Positions 4,582-64,000 of a stretch of DNA of 64,000 nt are shown here, one piece after another (position 1 is the stretch's first letter; each line of letters begins with the position of its first letter). The position numbers and the translations under genes were made by a program. The notes under the pieces are model-generated. The model was given only the letters and a program-made list of their open reading frames with translations. It searched no databases and was not told where the DNA came from. This DNA comes from Candidatus Latescibacterota bacterium. Its GTDB lineage: Bacteria; Latescibacterota; UBA2968. Location of the stretch: contig OZ241986.1 of NCBI GenBank assembly GCA_965204375.1, forward strand, positions 5,152,001 through 5,216,000, in the 5' to 3' direction.

Positions 4582-7500
4582 TTACTGATCTACGACACGC
4601 ACGGGAATGGGAACAGTGCGAAAATCTACATGATCGCCGTGCGTGACCTGGAGTTCAATCGTAGTTTCGCCTACCTTGAGACCACGCAGGTGAAAATCAA
4701 ACTTGCCGACATCATCGGCATCCTGAACAACTTCCAAAACCGTGGGATCGGCAATCGCCCATGTAAATTTGAAATCGGGATCATCTGGTGGGGGAATCTC
4801 ATCGCCATGGTCATCCAGAAAACGGATGCTCCATTTAGGAGTAAGTCCACCATTGGAAACTTTGAGATGGCCTACCCGACCACCGCTGGCATCGATCTGC
4901 CCTTGAAAATATCGGAAAAATCGATTGCCCGAATCTATGAGGACCAGACCCTCGGGTTCGAAACGTTCTTTCTCTTCCTTACCGAAGCTTCTGCCAAAAA
5001 TCAGAAAATCGCCAAATCCAATCGTGCCATCTTCATCCAGATCATACTTTGCGTCATACTGCTCATCGCCACGACTTAAACCAAACTGGCCTACAAATAG
5101 CACAAAGTCGTCAAAACCAACCCGCCCATCGCCATTAAAGTCCGGCGTAAGAACCGCAAGCTGTAATGCCACGCTGGTATTATCAAACGTTACCTCTTCA
5201 CGTTGTCCCCCGCGACCGAGTTCGGCACGCACCAACCGAAGCGTTGTGCCAGAAAACGTACTCGTTGTGCGAAAACGAATACTTCCCACCAGACCGCTAT
5301 CGACTGCGGCCTTCCCCCCAAAAGACACCAGACTAATCTCAATAGCAGTTGGATTCGTGCTTGGTAAGGCAAGCACCTGAGCATTTGGTAGAACACTGCC
5401 TGAGTCAAATCCCTCATAAAGCAGTTGCGTTGCATCGTATTCAAAGCGAATGGAAACACCATCCGCATTCTGGATATTTTTGCCAAATACCTGAAGGGAG
5501 ACAACCGACCCGGGAGCAACATCGAGAGATGTAACCGCTTGGTCGCCTGCTGCACCATCCACATCCAGAGATAGTGAAAAGGTGGCCTGTGACACCCCAT
5601 CCAATCCCAATGCAGACATATCCCACAGAATGACCGTACCACTACCACCCCCTGAAGCAAGGGATGTCCCATCGGGAGAAAACGCAACAGACCAGACAGG
5701 TTGCGTACGACCAAAATCAGAATGCTCATCTATATGCCTATAAGTCGCGATATTTTGTCCTGTCGCAATGTCCCAAAGTTTAACTGTTCTATCACTTGAC
5801 CCTGAACCGAGGGATGTCCCATTGGGAGAAAATGCAACAGACCAGACCGAAGACTTATGCCCTTCAAAGGTGGCACTATTTGTTTGCGTCGCTATATTCC
5901 ACAGCCTGATTGTGTTATCCCCTGACCCGGACGCGAGAGTTTTGCCATCAGGAGAGAACACCACAGAAGAGATCCCAGATGTATGTCCTTCAAGCGTAGC
6001 GATAGTGCGACCTGTCGCAATATCCCAAAGTTTAACTGTTCTATCACTTGACCCCGAAGCGAGGGTTTTACTATCGGGAGAAAACGCCACTGAACGGACC
6101 CTATGTGTGTGTCTTAGCGTGGTGATATTTTCTTTAGTCGCCACATCCCACAGCTTGATTGTGCTATCCTGTGAACCCGAAGCAAGCATTGTACTATCAG
6201 GAGAAAACGCCACTTGAACAGAACGCGTATGCTCCTCAAAGGTAGCGATATTTTCTTTGGTCGCAATATCCCATAGTCTAACCGTGCCATCGTATGCCCC
6301 TGAGGCGAGGGTTTTGCTATTGGGAGAAAATGCCACTGAACGGACCCTATGTGTGTGTCTTAGCGTGGCGATATTTTCTTTAGTCGCCACATCCCACAGC
6401 TTGATTGTGCTATCCTGTGAACCCGAAGCAAGCATTGTACTATCGGGAGAAAATGCTACTGAACGGACAGAACCTATATGTCCCTCAAGCGTGACGATAC
6501 GGTGTGGCGATAATTCCCACAGACTAAATGCCTCTGCGCTAACATTCCCTTCAGTATCAACCGCCATAATAAAAATCGAATGCACAGGAGGTTCGGAAAG
6601 ACTTGAAAATACAGCAGACGGAATAACGCCATCATAATCAAATTCAACTATAGCCTCTCTTTCGCCTGAAAACCCGCTACATATTTTCACTTCAGCACCT
6701 CCGGCGGCAAAGTGTGGCTCTCTTGTTCTAATGAATAGAATCACCTGATGAAGGCCATCTAAATCGCTGACTTTGAGTTGGATAGAGACACTTCTTGAGC
6801 CTGCTGGATATTCACGCTGAGAAATGAGTTCGATTGTTGGCGGCGGCGTCTCTTCATCTGGAATATCGGGATTAAAGTAAGGATGTACAGCCAAAAATTC
6901 AGCATTACATGCTGATAACTGGTCTTCTACCCTTGGACCATACGACATGATGTAATTGCCATCCCTGAAATCGTGCGACAATCCGAAAGCATGGCCAAGT
7001 TCATGTGCCGCTGTGTGAAAGCTAAATCTACCAGGAACCAATGCATCTCCGCCATTTTTCCCTCTGGAGCCTGCTGTCCCTCCTGCACGCTGACCACCAC
7101 CAGTACCAATTGCATCTATACTATTGTCAATGACAATGAAGTAAATATTCTTTCTCACATCAAACACCTGTTCAATCTCGTCAAACATGGTAAGAAATGT
7201 ATTGTCAAGATAGTGAATATCAGGGTATTGACCATCCACGCGATGAACCATCGGTTCGCCTCGTGCATCGGTTTCAAAGCGAAAAGTTTTGTACCCATAT
7301 CCATGCGCCTGCATCTGTTCTGCATAAAAGGTCTGAATCTGGCGAATTGCAACTTTTATCGAATCAACTACTTCCTGACGAAACGGACGGTCATTCGGCA
7401 AGAAGTAGATCATCCGCACAGTACGCGGTTCGCCAACGTTCAAATTAAGCGCGTGCTTTGTAGCAGCATAGATGCTATCGCGTGCCTGCCTGTCTTCGAG

Positions 7501-12249: not shown

Positions 12250-13110
12250 ATGATCAGGATGACCGAGAACAAACGGAGAACCGATGTGTGCAACCCTGTG
12301 TCCTGTTCAATCGGCATGCTTTTCATTCTTTGTCTGCTCGCTGTGCCATTGGCATGGGGGGATTATCAGGATGGCAGGATGGCATATAGCCGTGGAGACT
12401 ATGCAACAACACTCGAGGAATTGCGCCCCCTCGCCGAGCGAGGCAATGCCAGCGCGCAGTATTTCATTGGTTATATGTATTACAAAGGGCAGGGGGTGAA
12501 GAAAAACTATGCGGAGGCTGTGATATGGCTTCGCAAGGCCGCCGAGCAAGGCGATGCCCGTGCCCAACTCTTCCTTCGCCGGATAGGTAATAAAAGCCAT
12601 TGTCCAGATGCAAAGGCCGCGAAATGGCTTCGCAAAGCTGCCGAACAAGGCGATGCCAATGCTCAACTCGCGCTTGCTGGCAGGTATTTCAGAGGTCACG
12701 GCGTCGCCAAAGACGATAAGGAAGCCGCGAAGTGGCTTCATAAGGCTGCTGAGCAAGGCCATGCCAAGTCTCAGTTCGCACTTGCCAACAGGTATTTCAG
12801 AGGTCACGGCGTCGCCAAAGACGATAAGGAAGCCGCGAAGTGGTTTCGCAAGGCCGCCGAACAAGGCTATGTCCTGGCCCAATTCACCCTGGGTAGATTC
12901 TATGTTACGGGTATGGCGACACTCAGCGTGTCGAAAGACGTTGTGGAGGCGCATAAGTGGTTGAGCCTATCTGCGGCACAGGACCACACCAAAGCCCGCG
13001 AAAAACGCGACGAGATTGCCAAACTGATGACTGCTGAGCAACTTGCCAAAGCCGAGCGCCGGGCGTGCGAATGGGAATGGAAAAGGATTGAAAAAAAAGG
13101 GCCAGAGTAA
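12250..13110 (+). CDS. Secreted Sel1-like repeat protein
   Basis: Repeated A..WLRKAAEQG.A.AQ..L units; signal-like hydrophobic segment; AAGGAG RBS. Confidence 0.9.
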   Translation: MIRMTENKRRTDVCNPVSCSIGMLFILCLLAVPLAWGDYQDGRMAYSRGDYATTLEELRPLAERGNASAQYFIGYMYYKGQGVKKNYAEAVIWLRKAAEQGDARAQLFLRRIGNKSHCPDAKAAKWLRKAAEQGDANAQLALAGRYFRGHGVAKDDKEAAKWLHKAAEQGHAKSQFALANRYFRGHGVAKDDKEAAKWFRKAAEQGYVLAQFTLGRFYVTGMATLSVSKDVVEAHKWLSLSAAQDHTKAREKRDEIAKLMTAEQLAKAERRACEWEWKRIEKKGPE

Positions 13111-29888: not shown

Positions 29889-32800
29889 ATGATACGCTCG
29901 CACAGCAGGCCCGTCTTCCTCGCCGTTCTTATCGCCGCACTCTACCTGCTCACCGCCGCCCTGTCTGCAGTGCCTGCACAGGCGGGCGATTGTGCAACAG
30001 TGCAGGCATTCCCCTGTGGTGAAGAAGAATGTGGCGCCACAGTATTCATAAATGAGAATAATGTAAGAATGATCCCTGCCAATGTGAACTGGCTGCAGGC
30101 AACGCCTGCAGGGAACATATTTGACAAGGGAACCACGGTAACACTGAAGATACTCTCCAGCGCACCAAGCAATGCCCATATCTTCTTTCAGGGCAACAAC
30201 TGCACAGGAGTAGGGATCGTGGTAACACCGCCGCAAGGTACTCCACCGCCACAGGATCCACCGCCACAGGATCCACCGCCACAGGATCCACCGCCACAGC
30301 CGCCACCACAGCCGCCACCACAGCCGCCACCACAGCCGCCACCACAGCCGCCACCACCAACCCCTTCGGTGACAATCACAGCGAATCCTACAACCATCAC
30401 GGAAGGCACATCTGCGACATTCACAATCACAGCTAACCCTGCACCGGCAAACACAATAACCGTGAACGTCAACGTCAGTCAGAACGGCACTTTCATCAGT
30501 GGCTCAACAGGCACGCACACGGTCATCATCGGCACCTCCGGCACCGCCACATTGATAGCCAATACTGTAAATGATAATACAGATGAGCCGAATGGCTCGA
30601 TAACAGCCCAAGTGCAAGGTGGAACAGGCTATACAGTAGGCTCTCCATCTTCAGCAACCGTCAATGTCAACGACAACGACGTATCTGGAGGAGGGAGTCA
30701 ACCGCCGATAGTGACCCCACCACCACAACAACCACAGCCACCGCCACCACCACCGCCAACCCCTTCGGCGACAATCACAGTGGGGACCTCACCTATCACT
30801 GAAGGCACGGATGCGACGTTCACAATCACAGCCTCCCCTGCTCCGTCAGCCACAATAACCGTGAGGGTGAATGTCACTCAAACGGGTAGTGTCCTCAGCG
30901 GCACACCGCCTTCAACCGTCACCATCGGCACCTCTGGCACCGCCACACTGACGGTAGCAACAGATGACGATAATACAGATGAGCCAAATGGCTCAATAAC
31001 AGCCCAAGTGCAAAGCGGAACAGGCTATACAGCAGGCACTCCATCCTCGGCAACCGTCAACGTAAACGACAACGATATTCCAAAGGTGACAATCACAGCA
31101 AATACGTCACCCGTCACCGAAGGTACGGATGCGACATTCACAATCACAGCGAACCCTGCACCTACAACCTCATTAAACATGATGGTGGATGTCTCTCAGA
31201 CCGGCAACTTCATCAGCGGTTCACCGGGCATGCGCTTGGTCACCATCAACGCCAACAATACCACCGCCACACTGACAGTAGAAACGGACAACGATAATAC
31301 AGATGAGCCAAATGGCTCGATAACAGCGCAAGTGCAAAGCGGAACAGGCTACACAGTAGGCTCTCCATCTTCAGCACCCGTCACCGTCAATGACAACGAC
31401 ATTCCGCAGATGACAATCACAGCGAATCCTACAACCATCACTGAAGGCACGGCTGCGACATTCACAATCACAGCGAACCCCAGACCGGCAACCGCAATAA
31501 CTGTGAACGTAAGCGTCACCCAAACCGGCAAGGTCTTCAGGGGCACACCGCCTTCAACTGTCACCTTCCGCGCCAACCAGACCACCGCTACCCTCACAGT
31601 AGCAACAGATGACGACAATGTAGATGAAATCGCCAGCCAGGTAACAGCGCAAGTGCAAGCCGGAACAGGCTATACAGTAGGCTCTCCATCTTCAGCAACC
31701 GTTACCGTCAATGACAACGACATTCCGCAGATGACAATCACAGCGAATCGCGCAAGCGTCACTGAAGGCACGGCTGCGACATTCACAATCACAGCGAACC
31801 CCAGACCGGCAACCGCAATAACTGTGAACGTAAGCGTCACCCAAACCGGCGATATCCTCAGCGGCACACCGCCCTCAACAATCACCATCAGCACCAAAAA
31901 TACCACCCTCACAGTCGCAACGGATGACGACGACGTGCGCGAATCCGATGGTACCGTAATGGCACAGATAACGACAGGTGTGGGCTACACAGTGGGCACA
32001 CCATCCTCGGCAAGCGTCACCGTAAACGACAACGACACACCTCCGAACTCGCCAGCAACAGGTGCCCCAATCATCATCGGCAAACCCGAGTTGGGCGAAA
32101 CCCTAAAAGCAGATGTCTCCAACATCCGGGATGCCAATGGCCTCACCAATGTGTCATACGCCTATCAGTGGATCCGCGTAATCGGCAGCATGGAGACCGA
32201 GATCTCCGGTGCCACTGGCTCGACGTACAAAGTGGTAATAGCCGATAGTGGTTACCGGCTAAAAGTTCGGGTAAACTTCAACGACGATTTGGGCTATCCC
32301 GAAGAATTGGAAAGCGCGTTGACAGCGATGGTGGTCATACCGGGCGTGACGCCGGTCATAACAATCACAGCGGACCCCCCAGGTGTCACCGAAGGCGAGG
32401 CTGCGACATTCACAATCACAGCAACCCCTGCACCTACAATCACACTCACCGTGAACGTGAACGTAACCGAAACCGCCAAAATGCTCAGCGGCACACCGCC
32501 TTCAACAGTCACCATCAGCACCGGCCAAACCACCCTGACAGTAGCAACAGACGACGATAAAAAGGACGAACGCGCCAGTGTCGTAACCGCGCAAGTACGA
32601 ACCGGAGCAGGCTATGTAGTAGGCACACCATCCTCATCCAGAGTACTTGTCCTGGATAACGACTTGCCACCCACGATAGACGCAACCCTGAGCAGCCTGA
32701 CCATCAACCCCGGCGTTATGACTCCGACATTCGCCCCGGAGACATTGTCCTACACCTCCTTAGTGCCGAACGCGACCTCAATGGTAACAGCCACAGCAAC

Positions 32801-35800
32801 ACCCAAAAACCCGGACGCAACCGTATCCATCAACGGCCAGAACACCACCACATTGGACGTGCCATTTACCGGCGACACGATGGACGTCACAGTAACGGTT
32901 ACAGCCGTCGATAACATCACGCAATTGACCTACACCATCACAGTCAACCGTGCGCCATCAGGGCTCCCGCAGGTAACAATCACAGCGAATCCCAAAACCG
33001 TCACCGAAGGCACGAATGCGACATTTACGGTCACAGCAAACCAGCCATCGGTAACCGATCTGACCTTAAACGTGAACGTAACAGAGACCGCCAAAATGCT
33101 CAGCGGCACACCGCCCTCAACAGTCACCATCAGTGCCGGCTACACCACCGCCACACTGATAGTCGCAACGCATGACGACGATGTAGATGAACACGCCAGC
33201 GTGGTCAAAGCGCAAGTGCGAGCCGGAACAGGCTATACAATAGGCGACCCATCCCTGGCGAGCGTACTTGTGCTGGACGACGAAGTGGTGTTATCGACCG
33301 ACGCAACGCTGAACAACCTGACCATCAACCCCGGTACACTGAACCCGACATTCGATCCCGACACATACACTTACACCGCCACAGTGCCGCACGCGACCTC
33401 TACGGTAACAGTCACAGCAATACCCAATCACACAGACGCAACCGTATCTATCAACGGTCAGACCGCGACCACATTGAACGCGCCATTTACCGGCGACACG
33501 ATGGACATCGCGGTAACAGTAACAGCCGAAGACAACACGACCCAAGTGACCTACACCATCACAGTCAACCGCGGTGCCCCATCGATCGACGCAACGCTGG
33601 GCAGCTTGACAATCAACCCCGGCACACTGAACCCAGCATTCGATCCGGCGACATTGGACTACACCGTCTCAGTGGAGAACGGGATCTCGACCATAACGAT
33701 TACAACGACAGCCAATCACCCGGGTGCAACCGTATCCATCAACGGGCAGACCGCGACCACATTGGACGTATCACTTGTCGAAGGCACGAACATCATCACA
33801 GTAGTAGTCACAGCCGAAGACAACAGTACACAATTGACCTACACCATCACAGTCACACGCGAAGCACCGATCCCACAGGTGACAATCTCGGTAAATACCA
33901 CACCCATCACCGAAGGCACGGATGCGACATTTACAATCACGGCGACCCCTGCATCCACAACAGCAATAACCGTGAACGTGAGCGTTACCCAGACGGGTAG
34001 TGTCATCAGCGGCACGCCGCCCTCGACCATCACCATCAACGCCAATGAAACCTCCGCTACTCTTACAGTAGCAACAGATGACGATAACACAGATGAAGAA
34101 GCTGGTGTAATAACCGCGACACTACAAGCTGGAACAGACTACACAGTGGGCGACCCATCCTCGGCGAGCGTCACTGTAAACGACAACGACGCGGCTCCCA
34201 ACAATCCAGCCACGGGTGCCCCAACAATCACTGGTACACCCGAAGTGGGAGAAACACTCACAGCCGATGTCTCTAACATCCGGGATGCCGATGGCCTCGA
34301 AAATGTATCATACATCTATCAGTGGATCCGCGTAATGGGCGGTGTGGAGACTGAGATCCCCAATGCGACAGGTACGACATACGAAGTCGTCACAGCCGAT
34401 ATAGGCCACCAGCTAAAAGTTCGGGTGAACTTCAACGATGATTTGGGCAACACCGAAGAACTGGAAAGCGAATTGATAGCACTCGTCGTTGCACCAGTGG
34501 TCCCACAGATAACCATCTCGGCAAGCACCACAACCATCACTGAAGGCGGGAATGCAACCTTCACCATCACAGCAACTCCTGCACCAACAACCGCGCTGAC
34601 CGTAAATGTGAGTATAACCGAGACGGGTAGTGTCATCAGCGGCACACCGCCCTTGACCATCACCATCAACGCCAATGAAACCTCCATCACACTGACCGTA
34701 GCCACAGATGACGACAATGTAGATGAAGAAAATAGCGTCATAAGCGCAACACTACAGGCTGGAACAGGCTACACAGCAGGCACACCATCCTCGGCGAGCG
34801 TCAACGTCAACGACAACGACCTGCCCCCGAACTCGCCAGCCACAGGCGTCCCAACAATCACCGGCACACCGCAAGTAGGTCAAACACTAACCGCGGACGT
34901 CTCGAACATCCAGGATGCCAATGGCCTCACCAATGTATCGTACACCTATCAGTGGATCCGTCTGGTAGGCAGTGTGGAAACCGAAATCATCGGCGCCACG
35001 GGTGTGACATACGAAGTCACAATAACCGACACAGAGCGCCAGCTAAAAGTTCGGGTGAATTTCACCGACGATTTGGGCTATGCCGAAGAATTGGAAAGCG
35101 CGTGGACAGCAGTTATTACACCAGAGGAACCTCGCGTGGTAAAATTAGACGGATGGCTGGCGCGATTTGGGCGAACAGCATCGAATCATGTCGTCGAAAC
35201 AGTGCGCGAACGCGTTAGAGGGCATGTGGGCACCAACCATGTGGTGATCGGCGGGTACAACCTCCATGAGATGAATTATCGCGGACTATTTTTTAACCCG
35301 ACATTGATGCCGGGCGATTCCCCAATGAGATTTAGCATTGAAGCCGCACAGAGTGCGCACGACAAAGAGATATTGAAGCAAATAATATCGAGTACATCAT
35401 TTGCCCTGTCTGGCAAAATGGGACCGTACAGCGAACCTCGATGGGCCGTGTGGGGCCGGGGCGCAACAACGCGCTTTAGCGGCACCGACGACGATCAGAC
35501 AGTAGAAGGCGACGTAACATCGGTCATGCTGGGTATTGACTATGGAGATAATTGTTTCCAGGGCGGACTTGTCCTGTCCTACACCATGGGCGATGGCATA
35601 CTGGGCACCATCGCCAATACCCGCGACGAATGGTCAGTAGAGACAACGCTGACGGGTATTTACCCCTGGGCGCGCCTCGCATTGACAAACAAATCCTCCG
35701 TATGGGGAATGCTGGGCTATGGCGGAGGCAACCTGCCCTTATCGCTCGAAGGCATCGAGAAATTAGAGACAGACGCCAATATGGTAATGGGAGCAATTGG

Positions 35801-58382: not shown

Positions 58383-58679
58383 TCACACAATCACATAGTC
58401 CTCGCGTTTTGGCACGGGGTGTTCGCGTTCGGAAATGCCTTCTATCCGCTTTTCGCATGCAGCACATAGATGATAATAACAGATGCGATCATCTTCCGGG
58501 TCAATCAGTTCCGACATTTTGGACCGCAACGCGAGAAATCGACTTTCATTTAAGTTACACTCAAAAACGCTTTTCTGCCGCCGCGATCCATAATTTTCCA
58601 TGAGTTTCATTACCCGCCGCAATCGGCGTTTGTCGGCAATATCGTAGGCTACTACTACAAGCATCGCGCTGGTCTCCAA
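58383..58679 (-). CDS. cas2: CRISPR-associated endoribonuclease Cas2
   Basis: VVAYDI.D.RR, GSRRQKSVFEC, D.ICYY.LC..C; follows cas1. Confidence 0.95.
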   Translation of the reverse strand: METSAMLVVVAYDIADKRRLRRVMKLMENYGSRRQKSVFECNLNESRFLALRSKMSELIDPEDDRICYYHLCAACEKRIEGISEREHPVPKREDYVIV

Positions 58680-58682
58680 AAA

Positions 58683-59684
58683 TTATCGAATTAAGAATGG
58701 CAGGTATGCCGTGTCTTCGCCGCGCAATAGGCGGATGAGACGACGGGCCTGGAACTCAAAGCATTGGCGATATGACACTTTTTGTACCTGTCCACCGGGT
58801 TGCAGATATTGGACTTCAACAGCGACGCGATCTTGATAGGCACGAATTAACTGCGTCCGTCCATCGCCACATAAGAACACACCCCCGTCGCGCTGTTCAA
58901 AGTCTTCCTTTTTTATTTGTCCGTGATTCAGCAAGTCCAGTACCATTGCATCTACAATCACTGGGCGAAATTCTTCCATCATGTCCAGCGCGAGCGAGGG
59001 GCGGCCGTAATCTACGAGATGCAGATAACCGATATAGGGGTCCAAGCCCACGCGCAAGACAGCCGATTCCAGGTCCGAAGATAGGAGCGTATAGCCAAAG
59101 CTCAACATGGCGTTGACTGCATCTTTGGGTGGGCGGCGCGTGCGTTTGACAAAGGGAAATGCAGTGGGTAAAAATTGACCGAGCGCACCGAAATAGGTCG
59201 CGGTTGCAGCACCTTCGATTCCGCGCAGGGCATCGGCATTGTCAGCGCGGTCTATCTGTTTTAAGAGTGCGCGCAGTCGCCGTGCGGTGTGGGCGATGTC
59301 TCGATTTCGGCGTCGGGCAAGGCGCATGATCAGGGTGCGCATGTTGCGGATTTTGCCCGATACAAATCCCCGTGCGGCACCCAGTCGAAACGCTTCGTCT
59401 TCGTAGCGACGGTATTGCATTTGCCGCAGAATCACATTGCGGCCCTGCGGTCCGACCAGTCGCCCGCGATAACTGCCCGTGGTGCTGAGGAGTACGAGGT
59501 CAATGCCCTGCATTAGCGCGGTGTGCATGGCCGCAGGTGTTATTCCGATGTTGCCAAATAAGACCATCTGGTGCAGATCATACGCGGGTGATGTGTGGAG
59601 TTTTTTTTTGCCTTTCCACACGGTTAATCGCTCGCCTTCACGGCGTACCTGTGCGCCGGTTTCTGTGACATAGAGTACGGACAC
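58683..59684 (-). CDS. cas1: CRISPR-associated integrase Cas1
   Basis: LYVTETGA, GIEG.A...YF, NAMLSFGY, GYLH..DYGRPSLALDMMEEFRP. Likely GTG start at 59684. Confidence 0.97.
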   Translation of the reverse strand: MSVLYVTETGAQVRREGERLTVWKGKKKLHTSPAYDLHQMVLFGNIGITPAAMHTALMQGIDLVLLSTTGSYRGRLVGPQGRNVILRQMQYRRYEDEAFRLGAARGFVSGKIRNMRTLIMRLARRRNRDIAHTARRLRALLKQIDRADNADALRGIEGAATATYFGALGQFLPTAFPFVKRTRRPPKDAVNAMLSFGYTLLSSDLESAVLRVGLDPYIGYLHLVDYGRPSLALDMMEEFRPVIVDAMVLDLLNHGQIKKEDFEQRDGGVFLCGDGRTQLIRAYQDRVAVEVQYLQPGGQVQKVSYRQCFEFQARRLIRLLRGEDTAYLPFLIR

Positions 59685-59685
59685 T

Positions 59686-61611
59686 TCACACCACCTCAAC
59701 GCCTATTTGCAACCGTCCCGCGTCATCCGCTGTTACAACCCAAACGCCTGTGGTGATTTTGCCTTTGCGGTCGCGCAATAAGTCGCGCATTTCATCTTCT
59801 GCACGCGATAGGTCGGCCATGACCTGTGCGGCTTGCTGGCGCAGTGCGACGTAACGATCTATAGCTTCGCGGTTTTGCGGTTGATCCACACGTCCCATGC
59901 CGGCTGTAAATGCCGGGTCGATATGTAGCAGAGGAGAGGGGTACCCGCCTTCGGGCAAGTCAAATTCGCAGTTGCAGGGGACGGTTTCGACGAGGTCGGG
60001 CAGGTGTTTGCGGATTTTTGGACAGCCAATGGGATTCGGATGCAGGCGTTCGATCTGATAATCGGTTACTTCGGCTTTGTAATCTGCACACGCGCCGATT
60101 ACTGCGTGTAAAAAAGCGCGTCCCTGGTCGTCGAGATGTCCGAATACGCATTTTAAGACGTGGCGTTCGATGTGTACCAGATGGGCGGTTGTATAGGCTT
60201 TTTCTGTGAGTGCGCGAATGACGGCGCATCCCTTCATGATGGGTTGATATTCTGGAAAGGCTTTTTCTAAATCGACTTTTTGCAGGGGTGTGTGGGGTTT
60301 CCCTCCGCCCAGGCGAGAAACTGCATGGTCAAATGCCTGTGTGTCTATGGGTTTGATGTCGCGCAAGACGCGGTCCTGGTCTGCGAGTGCGTGTCCTTCT
60401 GTGTCGATAAATAGCGCACGTCGTCCTGTTTTGCGGTGGATGCCCAGGGGGAGTTTGATCAAATTGCCGAGTTCATCTTCTCCAACGGTGTCTTGTTTGG
60501 GAAACCATTCCCACTGCAATTCCTCTGATGGCGGTCCAAATCGCTTTGCAAATGCGCGACCATAAGCACGCAGGTCACATGCGGGGATGGGTTTTTCAAA
60601 GAAGAGCCATATATGCGCCCCTTTGTTTCCGCTGTCTTCGATGTGGACGGGGAGGTTGAGGGATGCAAAGCCAGCGCATACCCGTCGGATGTCTTTGCAT
60701 ACTTGTTCGCGCAACGCATCCATTAAGGTGTTGTTTTGCAGTGCTTTGTTGAGGGTCTCTTTTTTTATGTCGATGTCCAGGGCTAAAAATTGCGCTTTGT
60801 CCAGGTCGAATATCGGATATACCCCCACAGTCGTGTCTCCGCGGAGGTGGGATTGGATCACGCCCTCTGTGAGGGGTTCGCGCACGGGGACATAGCCGGT
60901 TTTTCCGTCTTCATCAATCCATTGCCGAGCGTACACGTCTTTGCGCGCGGTGAATAGCCGCAAGATGTGTGCGGCAGTATCAGGTTGGTTTTTGATTTCT
61001 GCATCTGGCAAGGTCTGGGATGTTTGCAACTGCGCGCCGACGAGTTGTTTGCCCGCAAGTGCGCCTGCATGGTCCGGGTCGTGCTCAAGTACTCGTCCGT
61101 AGAGTTCTTGCGCGAGGCCCATCATGCCATCTTCTTCGTATAGATGCGCGAGTTCAAAGAGTCCTTCTATGTGATCTGCATGATGCTGAATGAGGGTTTG
61201 CAAGCGCGATTGCGCGAGGCCCGTTTCATTGCGGTCTGCGTGTAACATTGCCAGTCCAAATAGGGATTTGGCATCGTCAGGGCACTGAGATAGGTGCGCC
61301 TGATAGATTTCAACGGCTGACTGGATGTCGTTCAGTTCTTCTGCGAGTACACCCCATTCACCAAACGCATCATCTACTGGTAGATCGCGCCACCGATTGA
61401 GCAATGTCTGTGCTCTGTCCTGTTCGCCCCGGATGAGGGCTATGCGGACCATCAATTGATGTGCGCGATTGCATGCCGGATCGCGCGCACAGGCTTCCGA
61501 AGCCAATGCCTCCACGCCATCCACGTTGTTTTGTTCTAAAAGTACCTGTGCTTTTTCACAGAGGGTATCCACGAGAGATGTGGGGGACGATTCTATTGCA
61601 GGAGTTGTCAT
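59686..61611 (-). CDS. CRISPR-associated primase-polymerase (CAPP): TPR repeats, AEP domain, Cys-rich C-terminal domain
   Basis: N-terminal TPRs; AEP motifs LDID and SGNKGAH; FPKQD..GNLIKLPLG; Cys-rich C-terminal domain; directly upstream of cas1-cas2. Confidence 0.88.
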   Translation of the reverse strand: MTTPAIESSPTSLVDTLCEKAQVLLEQNNVDGVEALASEACARDPACNRAHQLMVRIALIRGEQDRAQTLLNRWRDLPVDDAFGEWGVLAEELNDIQSAVEIYQAHLSQCPDDAKSLFGLAMLHADRNETGLAQSRLQTLIQHHADHIEGLFELAHLYEEDGMMGLAQELYGRVLEHDPDHAGALAGKQLVGAQLQTSQTLPDAEIKNQPDTAAHILRLFTARKDVYARQWIDEDGKTGYVPVREPLTEGVIQSHLRGDTTVGVYPIFDLDKAQFLALDIDIKKETLNKALQNNTLMDALREQVCKDIRRVCAGFASLNLPVHIEDSGNKGAHIWLFFEKPIPACDLRAYGRAFAKRFGPPSEELQWEWFPKQDTVGEDELGNLIKLPLGIHRKTGRRALFIDTEGHALADQDRVLRDIKPIDTQAFDHAVSRLGGGKPHTPLQKVDLEKAFPEYQPIMKGCAVIRALTEKAYTTAHLVHIERHVLKCVFGHLDDQGRAFLHAVIGACADYKAEVTDYQIERLHPNPIGCPKIRKHLPDLVETVPCNCEFDLPEGGYPSPLLHIDPAFTAGMGRVDQPQNREAIDRYVALRQQAAQVMADLSRAEDEMRDLLRDRKGKITTGVWVVTADDAGRLQIGVEVV

Positions 61612-61713
61612 GGGGAGATTCCTTTCTGTTTGGGGAAAAATAATGCAATCACACTGGGGTTTGTCTGTGGATTGCGTTTACACATTTTTTAGCAGTTTTA
61701 ATTTTTTCTTCAA

Positions 61714-61742
61714 AAATTAGTGCTCAAATGTTCACTTGTCAA
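61714..61742 (-). promoter_or_regulatory. Sigma-70 promoter for CAPP-cas1-cas2
   Basis: TTGACA-17 bp-TAATTT on the minus strand, about 100 bp upstream of CAPP. Confidence 0.65.
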
Positions 61743-61750
61743 GATAAAAA

Positions 61751-61774
61751 AGTAAACGGGTAGTCCCTCCTGAT
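61751..61774 (-). CRISPR. Partial degenerate CRISPR repeat
   Basis: AGTAAACGGGTAGTCCCTCCTGAT versus consensus AGTAGTCGGGTAATCCTTCCTGAT (20/24). Confidence 0.7.
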
Positions 61775-61780
61775 TGTTTC

Positions 61781-61948
61781 TTAGCCTCCAATGAACGCTT
61801 TAGCGATTGACCACAATACCACAATAGCCATGATATGCGGTATGTGTATAATCAGCGCAAAAATTACGGCGAACACGAATATACACAACACCACTATATC
61901 TACCAATAAACGGACAATGAGATCTGCTGTGTTATTGGGCTCTTTCAT
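61781..61948 (-). CDS. 55-aa two-helix membrane protein occupying a CRISPR spacer position (not in the ORF track)
   Basis: Manual translation: MKEPNNTADLIVRLLVDIVVLCIFVFAVIFALIIHIPHIMAIVVLWSIAKAFIGG*. The ATG directly follows the repeat end ATTGAAAC; GAGG lies 9 nt upstream. Confidence 0.65.
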   Translation of the reverse strand: MKEPNNTADLIVRLLVDIVVLCIFVFAVIFALIIHIPHIMAIVVLWSIAKAFIGG

Positions 61949-61985
61949 GTTTCAATGCCTCAGTAGTCGGGTAATCCTTTCTGAC
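61949..61985 (-). CRISPR. Isolated full-length degenerate CRISPR repeat (4 substitutions)
   Basis: GTTTCAATGCCTCAGTAGTCGGGTAATCCTTTCTGAC versus the array consensus (33/37). Confidence 0.9.
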
Positions 61986-62001
61986 GAACGCCCTATTTAT
62001 C

Positions 62002-62018
62002 TGCAAGAAGCGTGCCAA
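62002..62018 (-). promoter_or_regulatory. Sigma-54 (-24/-12) promoter firing into the isolated repeat
   Basis: TTGGCACGCTTCTTGCA fits YTGGCACG-N4-TTGCW; predicted start near 61991. Confidence 0.75.
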
Positions 62019-62124
62019 AAAATAAAAAATCCTCAAAAAAATGAGGATTTTCTTTTTTTATTCTTTTTTCGCGGTTTTTTTTGTAAAAAAATCCCAAACA
62101 GGCATTCACCAGAGGGGAACAGAC

Positions 62125-62158
62125 GTGCAGAAATGCTCACATTTGTGCAAAAATGCAC
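62125..62158. promoter_or_regulatory. Tandem palindromes, candidate enhancer (bEBP binding sites)
   Basis: GTGCAGAAATGCTC (62125) and GTGCAAAAATGCAC (62145), 20 bp apart and about 110-140 bp upstream of the -24 box. Confidence 0.5.
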
Positions 62159-62169
62159 GCCTATGCACA

Positions 62170-63996
62170 GTTTCAATACCCCAGTAGTCGGGTAATCCTT
62201 CCTGATTATCATCGACTCATACATCGCAGAGACCGCACCTTCAGGGTTTCAATACCCCAGTAGTCGGGTAATCCTTCCTGATAAACCAAAGCAGGATAAA
62301 AATGACGCCTGAAGATTTTAGTTTCAATACCCCAGTAGTCGGGTAATCCTTCCTGATGTGAGAAATTCCCTGTCAGAATTATTGATAGTTGTAAACCTAA
62401 TCGTTTCAATACCCCAGTAGTCGGGTAATCCTTCCTGATGACGACGGTTCAATGGAAGTCGATTCACCTTGCATGTTTTACAGTTTCAATACCCCAGTAG
62501 TCGGGTAATCCTTCCTGATGAATGGTCATATCAGTCATCGTAATACTTCCAATTTAGAAGTGTTTCAATACCCCAGTAGTCGGGTAATCCTTCCTGATTC
62601 AATTCACCAGAGACTTTAGGCTTATTTTACAAGATTCGTTCGTTTCAATACCCCAGTAGTCGGGTAATCCTTCCTGATCGTTGCAGAATTTGAGTTGGAA
62701 GTAGTGAAGGACATGTATGTTTCAATACCCCAGTAGTCGGGTAATCCTTCCTGATAGTTTTAGACCACGATTGGAAAGACCATCGCGTAAGACCAGTTTC
62801 AATACCCCAGTAGTCGGGTAATCCTTCCTGATCGGCACGAATTTGAGTGTCGTTGATTTGGGAAAGGAATTGTTTCAATACCCCAGTAGTCGGGTAATCC
62901 TTCCTGATCTTATGCTGCGATTAGGGCAATTCACGCTGGCCTTGATGATATGTTTCAATACCCCAGTAGTCGGGTAATCCTTCCTGATCAGATGCAAAAG
63001 CTCGCAGCAGCATACGCATTTGATCCGTTTCAATACCCCAGTAGTCGGGTAATCCTTCCTGATCACCAATTACAAAGGAGGTGTAAAATGGCAGTGATGA
63101 GGTTGGGTTTCAATACCCCAGTAGTCGGGTAATCCTTCCTGATCTGCCGAAACCATTGTTGGCTTGGGTTGCACGACGTTGCTGACGTTTCAATACCCCA
63201 GTAGTCGGGTAATCCTTCCTGATGAGGTTGCTATTCGTGTTGGGCAGCGGGTCAATGAGGAAATGTTTCAATACCCCAGTAGTCGGGTAATCCTTCCTGA
63301 TTGATCATTCAGGACTTACGATCAATACCACAGGATTTTTGTTTCAATACCCCAGTAGTCGGGTAATCCTTCCTGATGCAGGACGCAAAAGAAATTGAGT
63401 ACGCGTATCCCATATAGTTTCAATACCCCAGTAGTCGGGTAATCCTTCCTGATTGGCATGTGGTCTCCTTGTGCGGGAAATTTTGAGCAATCTGGTTTCA
63501 ATACCCCAGTAGTCGGGTAATCCTTCCTGATTTTGCAGTTCCGCATCTGCATTTTCCAACTCACATCAAGTTTCAATACCCCAGTAGTCGGGTAATCCTT
63601 CCTGATCAATTACCAATGAAAAGTAAATCAAAAGTAACATATGATAAGTTTCAATACCCCAGTAGTCGGGTAATCCTTCCTGATAATTGAAACTGTCATC
63701 CCGGCCGTGAAGAAGCGTAAGTAGTTTCAATACCCCAGTAGTCGGGTAATCCTTCCTGATTTGACCTTCCCGCCGAAGTGATTGACCTGTTTCGCGTTAT
63801 TGAAACGTTTCAATACCCCAGTAGTCGGGTAATCCTTCCTGATGACTCTCAGATGGCAACTATAGATCGGCTGTATGCTGGTTTCAATACCCCAGTAGTC
63901 GGGTAATCCTTCCTGATCTCAATCCGAATCGGACAGCTACTCGCACGCGCGAAAAAGATGTTTCAATACCCCAGTAGTCGGGTAATCCTTCCTGAT
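62170..63996 (-). CRISPR. CRISPR array: 24 identical 37-bp repeats and 23 spacers of 37-46 bp, probably continuing beyond the window
   Basis: Plus-strand repeat GTTTCAATACCCCAGTAGTCGGGTAATCCTTCCTGAT. The minus strand ends in the canonical ATTGAAAC handle, so minus orientation is inferred. Confidence 0.98.
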
Positions 63997-64000
63997 ATAC

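Follow-up and report, generated by a model that had tools for sequence, protein, structure and literature searches.

Whether an isolated CRISPR repeat has been turned by selection into a translation-initiation region, or is merely decaying, is the question raised by a single repeat copy that stands directly before a short open reading frame (ORF) in the vicinity of a type III CRISPR array. The initial annotation favoured selection, with a possible change in Cas6 sensitivity. We analysed this copy, referred to as R′ (61949..61985, minus strand), within the window, the whole 64,000-nt stretch of DNA under study, which is part of a 6.34-Mb single-contig genome (G000 below). For comparison, we used other genomes of the same genus (G-numbers), referred to as relatives.

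An isolated, decayed repeat near a type III array

The window holds the trailer-proximal part of a CRISPR array (62170..64000, minus strand), in which 24 identical 37-nt repeats, each ending in ATTGAAAC, run from 62170 to 63996. The complete array has 76 repeats, reaches genome position 5219961 and contains three repeat variants, so the initial description of all array repeats as identical is valid for the window and fails genome-wide. R′ is separated from the first array repeat by a 184-nt block. It aligns with the array repeat over its full length and in the same orientation, with 33 of 37 positions identical. Of its substitutions (A1>G, G6>A, G26>A and T29>C, in minus-strand numbering), the initial annotation had stressed the two at the 3′ side; both are present, among four in total. 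As it had also stated, the changes place a GAGG 9 nt before an ATG (61948) that opens an ORF, and both 3′ changes fall in a stem arm: G26 and T29 of the repeat lie within the 3′ arm of a 5-bp UACCC/GGGUA stem. The array repeat is predicted to fold at −7.3 kcal/mol with this hairpin and R′ at −3.5 kcal/mol without it, consistent with the claimed weakening, even if the hairpin of the array repeat is itself of unremarkable stability (z-score −0.75; 43 of 200 shuffled sequences fold equally well or better). The 8-nt 3′ end of the repeat, ATTGAAAC, is unchanged in R′, so the 3′ handle is indeed untouched.

All cas genes of the locus lie on the minus strand. Read in that direction, the locus begins with a gene for an activator combining CARF, sigma-54 AAA+ and HTH_8 domains, followed by cas6, a conserved 116-codon ORF, an IS element and cas10, and then by five genes with RAMP-family matches, three ORFs without a Pfam match and two genes for CARF proteins. 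Next come a 304-nt non-coding stretch, the 76-repeat array, the 184-nt block, R′, the short ORF and a second decayed repeat, R″. The locus ends with a TTGACA-17 nt-TAATTT block (61714..61742, minus strand), a gene for a protein with TPR and archaeo-eukaryotic primase domains (59686..61611, minus strand; PF22548), cas1 (58683..59699, minus strand; PF01867, E = 1.5e-101) and cas2 (58383..58679, minus strand; PF09827, E = 2.2e-24). The primase protein was identified as a CRISPR-associated primase-polymerase (NF040561, 331.7 bits against a cut-off of 200). Cas10 carries the GGDD motif. Identity to its orthologues in G015 and G016 amounts to only about 30%, and effector modules therefore differ between relatives. 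The TTGACA-17 nt-TAATTT block is 90–97% conserved in relatives and, read by eye, would be a sigma-70-type promoter of the adaptation operon; a consensus scan did not report it because its second hexamer matches at three of six positions only.

The 304-nt stretch at the far end of the array is 85–90% conserved adjoining the arrays of all five relatives searched, and G018 and G020 carry decayed repeats beside the 184-nt block. Together with the ATTGAAAC repeat ends and the orientation of the genes, this places the leader at the far end and, consequently, R′ and R″ beyond the trailer end. We also considered the AT-rich 184-nt block as a plus-strand leader of the main array and rejected it on the same grounds: the conserved leader is found at the opposite end, the minus strand is indicated both by the cas genes and by the ATTGAAAC repeat end, and the adjoining repeats are decayed in relatives.

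The second copy, R″ (61751..61774, minus strand), retains the first 24 nt of the repeat and has lost its 3′ end, whereas relatives, as well as a loose contig end of sequencing run X6, carry a full-length decayed copy at this position. R′ and R″ flank a stretch of about 174 nt. Just before R″, the last two sense codons and the stop codon of the ORF read GGAGGC-TAA-GAAAC (61776..61789, minus strand), matching the 3′ end of R′ at 10 of 14 positions (read by eye, with a rough binomial estimate by hand). The resemblance noted in the initial annotation is thus real, and the 14 nt are possibly a remnant of a further repeat. Most likely, R′ is a decayed trailer-end repeat of the type III array and forms, together with R″, a fossil two-repeat mini-array.

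A sigma-54 promoter block with candidate activator sites

The 184-nt block between the array and R′ contains a perfect −24/−12 element of the form TGGCAC-N5-TTGCA (62002..62017, minus strand), which we call P3. Its sequence is TGGCACGCTTCTTGCA (62017→62002) and its 3′ end lies 16 nt before R′, which would put the transcription start about 6–8 nt before R′. The genome encodes rpoN and has 39 sites of the strict motif TGGCAC-N5-TTGCW, compared with about 6 expected from base composition. Three of the 39 are in the CRISPR-cas locus, all on the minus strand and with the extended version TTTGGCACGC-N3-TTGCA in common; besides P3, one precedes cas6 and one the operon of the 116-codon ORF and cas10. 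A relaxed sigma-54 scan of the main-array leader revealed no such promoter.

Upstream of P3 are two palindromes of the GTGCA-N4-TGCAC type, one with a single mismatch, 20 bp apart (62125..62158). Exact GTGCA-N4-TGCAC sites number eight in the genome (about six expected), and four of these are within the CRISPR-cas locus. Exact and one-mismatch palindromes form tandem pairs, 19–21 bp apart, upstream of all three promoters, at a distance of 115–185 nt (for the pair at P3, a separate measure gives about 108–136 nt). They are candidate binding sites of the activator encoded at the start of the locus. In this protein, an N-terminal CARF domain (PF09623, E = 4.2e-34) of the NE0113 family (TIGR02584, 174.4 bits against a cut-off of 80.65) precedes a sigma-54 AAA+ domain (PF00158, E = 1.6e-51) and a C-terminal Fis-type HTH (PF02954, E = 4.1e-13). 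The loop that contacts sigma-54 canonically reads GAFTGA; that of the activator reads GAFTNA, with the F and T kept and the fifth residue different.

A hairpin bordered by T runs on each side (62024..62053) separates the palindromes from P3; it is terminator-like on both strands and conserved in G020, G018, G013 and G016. Rfam returned only weak matches to terminator-bearing leaders there, and no CRISPR or other family above threshold across 61500–62500. The hairpin would end the array transcript.

The promoter block is conserved in relatives

From R′ through P3, the hairpin and the palindromes to the first array repeat, the sequence is 85–90% identical in G020, G018, G013 and G016, a level of conservation equal to that of the start of the primase-polymerase gene. 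The GG-N10-GC core of P3 is kept next to R′ in all four. The layout in G018 is the same throughout, from the activator to P3, R′ and the primase-polymerase gene, with palindromes and a promoter before cas6, before the 116-codon ORF and effector genes, and, as P3, after the array. Full-length activator orthologues were found in 8 of 21 genomes of the genus. There are two exceptions to the arrangement: G015 has the mini-array and is missing the P3 block, and G008 has the activator and two promoters and no P3. A scan of genome contigs for the promoter block recovered five relatives only, in records annotated as Candidatus Latescibacterota metagenome-assembled genomes; the same scan of metagenome contigs found nothing.

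The slot between the two repeats, by contrast with the block, holds unrelated sequence in different species. In G018 it is a 38-nt GC-rich palindromic spacer, and G020 and G015 share about 100 nt. The shared stretch is unrelated to that of G000, is also present in run X6, and recurs after solitary decayed repeats in G005 and partially in G004 and G006. G016 and G013 have a single repeat and no spacer, as if R′ and R″ had recombined. Among the genomes compared, the 174-nt ORF-bearing stretch occurs in G000 only.

The ribosome-binding-site look of R′ most likely reflects decay

To judge the proposed role of R′ in translation initiation, its physical and its evolutionary parts have to be separated. 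The 3′ end of the 16S rRNA of this genome reads ...CACCTCCTT, to which the GAGG of R′ is complementary. A spacing of 9 nt to the start codon is inside the 4–10 nt range by which such sites were judged and falls in the tail of the real Shine–Dalgarno distribution of the genome (65 cases, compared with 139 at the peak and a background of 6–16, among 3,287 long ORFs). Pairing is not improved by the substitutions: the duplex predicted with the 3′ end of the 16S rRNA has an energy of −5.6 kcal/mol in R′, compared with −6.1 kcal/mol in the intact repeat. With native R′ in place, the AUG is mostly unpaired in silico (P = 0.80–0.88) and the GAGG partly so; when an array repeat is substituted for R′, the centre of the GGGG run becomes paired, as do two of the three bases of the AUG (probability of being unpaired 0.00–0.03). 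In silico, the R′ changes thus mainly take the AUG, and in part the GAGG, out of the hairpin: what gains is accessibility rather than pairing with the 16S rRNA. The physical part of the initiation reading, a freed AUG with GAGG at a usable spacing, therefore stands in silico.

The claim that selection tuned R′ for initiation does not. Conservation of the GAGG change in orthologous loci had been set as a check beforehand, and GAGG is absent from the R′ orthologues of G020, G018, G015 and G013, none of which precedes the 55-codon ORF. The orthologues vary in a scattered fashion, the outcome that the initial annotation had set out as refuting its view, with changes at positions 7 and 37 in G020, at 27 in G018, at 6, 7, 34 and 37 in G015, and at 1, 6, 24, 29 and others in G013. 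The G018 copy has a GGAG without a matching ORF. Three of the four G000 changes (1, 6 and 29), including one of the two in the stem, are also present in the G013 copy, where the repeat adjoins the promoter block of the cas1 operon and no ORF follows.

Similar motifs arise in other decaying repeats. We compiled 32 singleton variant repeats from the loci of 13 genomes and found GAGG in five and GGAG in three at positions 25–28 (8 of 32 together). Since some of these copies are orthologous, the independent G>A events are fewer, at least three or four. An ATG after the altered GGGG run occurs among the 32 in the G000 copy only. Given the scattered orthologue changes, the frequency of GAGG and GGAG in decay, the unimproved 16S pairing and an ORF that is an orphan, the four substitutions most likely reflect drift rather than tuning, and the ribosome-site look ordinary decay. 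In the most plausible reading, the Shine–Dalgarno-like motif is of a kind that decay commonly produces, and it precedes an orphan ORF by chance.

One feature of the copies may point to constraint of another kind. Across R′ of G000, G018, G020 and G015, none of 11 substitutions falls at positions 8–25 (a hand count of small numbers), compared with about a third to a half of the changes across the 32 decayed copies. This sparing may mean that R′ is constrained, for example by retained Cas6 binding to the repeat core.

An orphan ORF in the spacer position

The ORF that begins at R′ (61781..61948, minus strand; 55 codons and a stop) occupies the spacer position between the two repeats, and its ATG abuts the repeat boundary exactly. 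The strongest of the alternatives takes it as a real gene for a small membrane protein, with the repeat altered by selection for a ribosome-binding site and for escape from Cas6. Beyond the usable spacing and the freed AUG described above, several properties of the ORF fit such a gene. Its codon-usage log-odds of 0.160 per codon corresponds to the 29th percentile of real gene windows (mean 0.214, s.d. 0.125) and is reached by 5% of spurious antisense ORFs (n = 2,463; mean −0.092). About 44 nt before the ORF stands the sigma-54 promoter. In run X4, a DNA contig covers 61475–62274 with 51 differences and seven one-base indels, and none of the indels falls inside the ORF; a second strain thus has the segment. 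The predicted product is very hydrophobic (GRAVY 1.67) and is modelled from the single sequence as one helix spanning residues 4–54 (pLDDT 90.6), although a high-pLDDT helix is usual for hydrophobic peptides and says little.

Set against this is the isolation of the ORF. A word-index search of 5.8 billion protein clusters and a phmmer search of 1.84 billion representatives each returned the query alone; no relative was found in viral or metagenome contigs, the Atlas gave no usable match, NCBIfam gave none, and the ORF DNA was not found in 60 related genomes searched. Two 20-residue hydrophobic matches in genome contigs of Chloracidobacterium metagenome-assembled genomes were taken as chance, and a Pfam match to Chordopox_L2 was set aside as sub-threshold (19.1 bits against a cut-off of 27). 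An open frame of at least 55 codons appears in 7.5% of shuffles of the ORF segment. With the unrelated slot sequences of relatives, the ORF-less G013 copy that shares three of the four substitutions, the prevalence of GAGG or GGAG in decayed copies and an anti-Shine–Dalgarno pairing energy no better than that of the intact repeat, we consider a selected gene of this kind unlikely. Even so, the ORF looks more gene-like than drift alone predicts, judged by codon usage, the ATG abutting the repeat and the indel-free frame in X4. Translation, if any, may be accidental or that of a young gene; that it yields a functional product is doubtful, a minority prospect. According to the model, the product would resemble a small membrane toxin or holin-like peptide in being a short, strongly hydrophobic helix. 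The searches above gave it no homology to a described family, and any toxicity would be hypothetical.

A further alternative is that Cas6 or the effector still binds R′ in the P3 leader, which might, for example, affect the 5′ end or stability of the adaptation-operon mRNA or titrate Cas6. One repeat copy follows P3 by 16 nt in all five genomes that have P3, and the spared positions 8–25 fit a conserved binding core, but the 3′ arm and handle vary between species, G000 has lost the hairpin, G016 and G013 have it in reduced form, and gene conversion from the array could explain the conserved core; the count is also low and drawn from lineages that are not independent. We regard such a function as improbable. 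Least probable is that the repeats and their spacer act as a crRNA-like regulatory mini-array in the manner of CreA, CreR or crlRNA, which would guide the effector to a host promoter or transcript. Two decayed repeats do surround a spacer-like stretch, at a position conserved in five species and with its own promoter, but a search with the 173-nt stretch gave only chance-level matches in the genome and no match within the CRISPR-cas locus (5208000–5240000). Its best outside match is 17 nt (E = 0.05), and it differs between species and is absent in two. The system is, moreover, type III, and in the accessible part of a survey (PMC10120712) mini-arrays of this type yielded no targets and were judged to be degraded repeats.

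A proposed CARF–sigma-54 circuit

The reading we favour, and think reasonably probable as a whole, is that of a fossil mini-array in the leader of a P3 transcript that continues into the adaptation operon, with an initiation site made by drift. Recognition of a target RNA would cause Cas10 to make cyclic oligoadenylate, which would be bound by the CARF activator. Acting from the palindromes, the activator would then open the three sigma-54 promoters, and with them expression of cas6, the effector genes and the adaptation genes. The P3 transcript would carry R′, the ORF and R″ as a 5′ leader and then, most likely, the primase-polymerase gene, cas1 and cas2. By chance, the lost hairpin together with the gained GAGG would yield a usable initiation site for the lineage-specific ORF, which may be translated when P3 fires.

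Continuation of the transcript into cas1 is consistent with the absence of any predicted terminator-like site on the way from R′ to the primase-polymerase gene. In run X5, an RNA library, one contig with adapters at both ends covers 61423–61811 and hence the 3′ end of the ORF, R″, the sigma-70-like block and the beginning of that gene. As the X5 contigs are unstranded, and this one could represent DNA carry-over, it is a hint of read-through only; the contigs also leave 61884–62156 uncovered, so that P3 is outside their span, a gap that speaks neither for nor against transcription there.

A bolder version would have P3 drive a young, lineage-specific membrane peptide as a dormancy or abortive-infection effector, induced by cyclic oligoadenylate and with the decayed repeat as its ribosome-binding region, while the same transcript raises spacer acquisition. 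This we consider rather improbable.

On its own, the ribosome-site look of R′ is an ordinary by-product of repeat decay, and the surrounding regulon is the more interesting object. It is clean, conserved and testable: a single CARF activator and three matching promoters with sites in one type III locus, with one of the three sigma-54 promoters pointing at adaptation genes. If cyclic oligoadenylate does control the activator, interference signalling would be linked to spacer acquisition, in a bacterial counterpart of the archaeal Csa3 feedback built from different parts. The locus also displays a promoter block and a possible new ORF taking spacer positions among dying repeats.

Comparison with known systems

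Our literature search found no description of a CRISPR-linked CARF–sigma-54 regulon, although the domain fusion may have been noted in the CARF classification of 2020. The repeats themselves have precedents. In the accessible part of Shmakov et al. 2023 (PMC10120712), type III mini-arrays are described as lacking targets and positional conservation and as consisting of degraded repeats. The copies described here are likewise decayed, lie near the array end opposite the leader and enclose a spacer with no detectable target. They differ from the mini-arrays of that account in a position that is conserved across five species, and from degraded mini-arrays in having a 184-nt functional-looking block in a spacer position and a 174-nt ‘spacer’ with an ORF.

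The CreTA and CreR mini-CRISPRs, as far as the accessible portions of the reports describe them (PMC8501985; PMC9458426; 10.1101/2023.03.10.532045), work with type I or V effectors and have a spacer matching a promoter. They share with this locus two degenerated repeats outside the array, next to a small and possibly toxic product. By contrast with what those portions report, the locus described here is of type III, its spacer yielded no target, and the small ORF sits inside the repeat pair instead of next to it.

For the activator, a counterpart in domain order is RtcR, described in the available sections of three papers as a CARF-AAA+-HTH sigma-54 activator of the rtcBA RNA-repair operon (PMC4012209; PMC9650030; PMC7790460). 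Both proteins have CARF, sigma-54 AAA+ and HTH in this order, and the AAA+ part of the activator aligns to the RtcR model with 249 bits. This is far under the RtcR cut-off of 650 bits, and the CARF domain belongs to the CRISPR-linked NE0113 family, not to the divergent RtcR type. In the accessible part of the 2014 survey, the RtcR-like family is not linked to CRISPR-Cas (PMC4012209); the activator gene described here, unlike the family in that account, lies inside a type III CRISPR-cas locus.

The adaptation genes resemble those of systems in which a CRISPR-associated primase-polymerase accompanies Cas1 and Cas2 (NF040561): the gene scores above the cut-off of that model and overlaps cas1 by 14 nt. 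The fused N-terminal TPR region and the putative sigma-54 control set it apart.

In regulatory logic, a known counterpart is Csa3, a CARF-HTH protein of Sulfolobus that binds cA4 and raises CRISPR and adaptation-gene expression, according to the accessible text of PMC8284326. As in that description, a CARF sensor would act in a type III context, with adaptation genes among its probable targets and positive feedback from invader detection. Where Csa3 is described there as having a winged HTH, the protein reported here is a sigma-54 AAA+ activator with a Fis-type HTH, in a bacterium. Its proposed circuit would work through −24/−12 promoters with distant palindromes.

An insertion sequence and a conserved ORF in the cas10 operon

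The second of the three look-alike sigma-54 promoters of the type III locus is followed directly by a 116-codon ORF in three genomes (L011:15947–16297, L047:3991–4341 and L046:4273–4623). Searches of this ORF against Pfam and NCBIfam returned no match. It is probably a real, so far undescribed gene of the type III locus. In the window genome, a gene for an IS4/5-family transposase (L011:14989–15855; genome positions 5230989–5231855, minus strand) lies between cas10 and this conserved ORF, which comes after the sigma-54 promoter of the cas10 operon. At the corresponding spot in the relatives G018 and G008, no 288-codon ORF was found; both carry the 116-codon ORF. The insertion may uncouple the effector genes from their sigma-54 promoter in the window genome.

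Repeat variants along the main array and in the decayed copies

The main array comprises 76 repeats (genome positions 5214170–5219961; window 62170 onward and L011:1–3961), the variants of which are arranged in zones. On the trailer side are 30 repeats, all identical, followed by a short mixed zone in which a CCCTCC variant (5 copies) is interleaved with another variant; on the leader side, a GTAAGC loop variant then recurs about 40 times. Of the two decayed repeats beyond the trailer end, R′ (61949–61985, minus strand) is like the trailer-side variant, and R″ (61751–61774, minus strand) resembles the loop/CCCTCC variant. Elsewhere in the window, long tandem repeats were observed at 6014–6468, 12616–12871, 30243–30359, 30795–31897 and 33293–33855, with periods of 123/246, 108, 12–36, 321 and 288 nt; they probably correspond to repeat domains within large proteins.

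Between the decayed repeats, several genomes and a metagenome strain carry some 100 nt of sequence that contains internal hairpins; it is seen in L014 and L016 (genomes G020 and G015), in L026 and in the loose ends of sequencing run X6 at 61751 and 61949. Identity is high among the genomes and the metagenome strain carrying it.

Possible remnants and spread of the CRISPR module

One to three decayed repeats are kept in four genomes without the full system (G006, G012, G005 and G004; L023, L024, L026 and L027). In the first three of these genomes, they directly follow the stop codon of a small conserved gene, ahead of a conserved downstream ORF, as if a CRISPR locus had been lost there and left a scar. 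Partial copies of the main-array leader (about 80–135 nt) occur in three relatives (G015:5991241, G015:5987809, G016:5745442 and G018:3476843), a few kilobases from the activator gene, on its side facing away from the array; perhaps these lead into second arrays, or else are remnants. Locus L019 of G057, a genome from another family within the same class, contains an array whose 22 repeats are identical to the repeat of the window, which suggests that the CRISPR module has moved horizontally.
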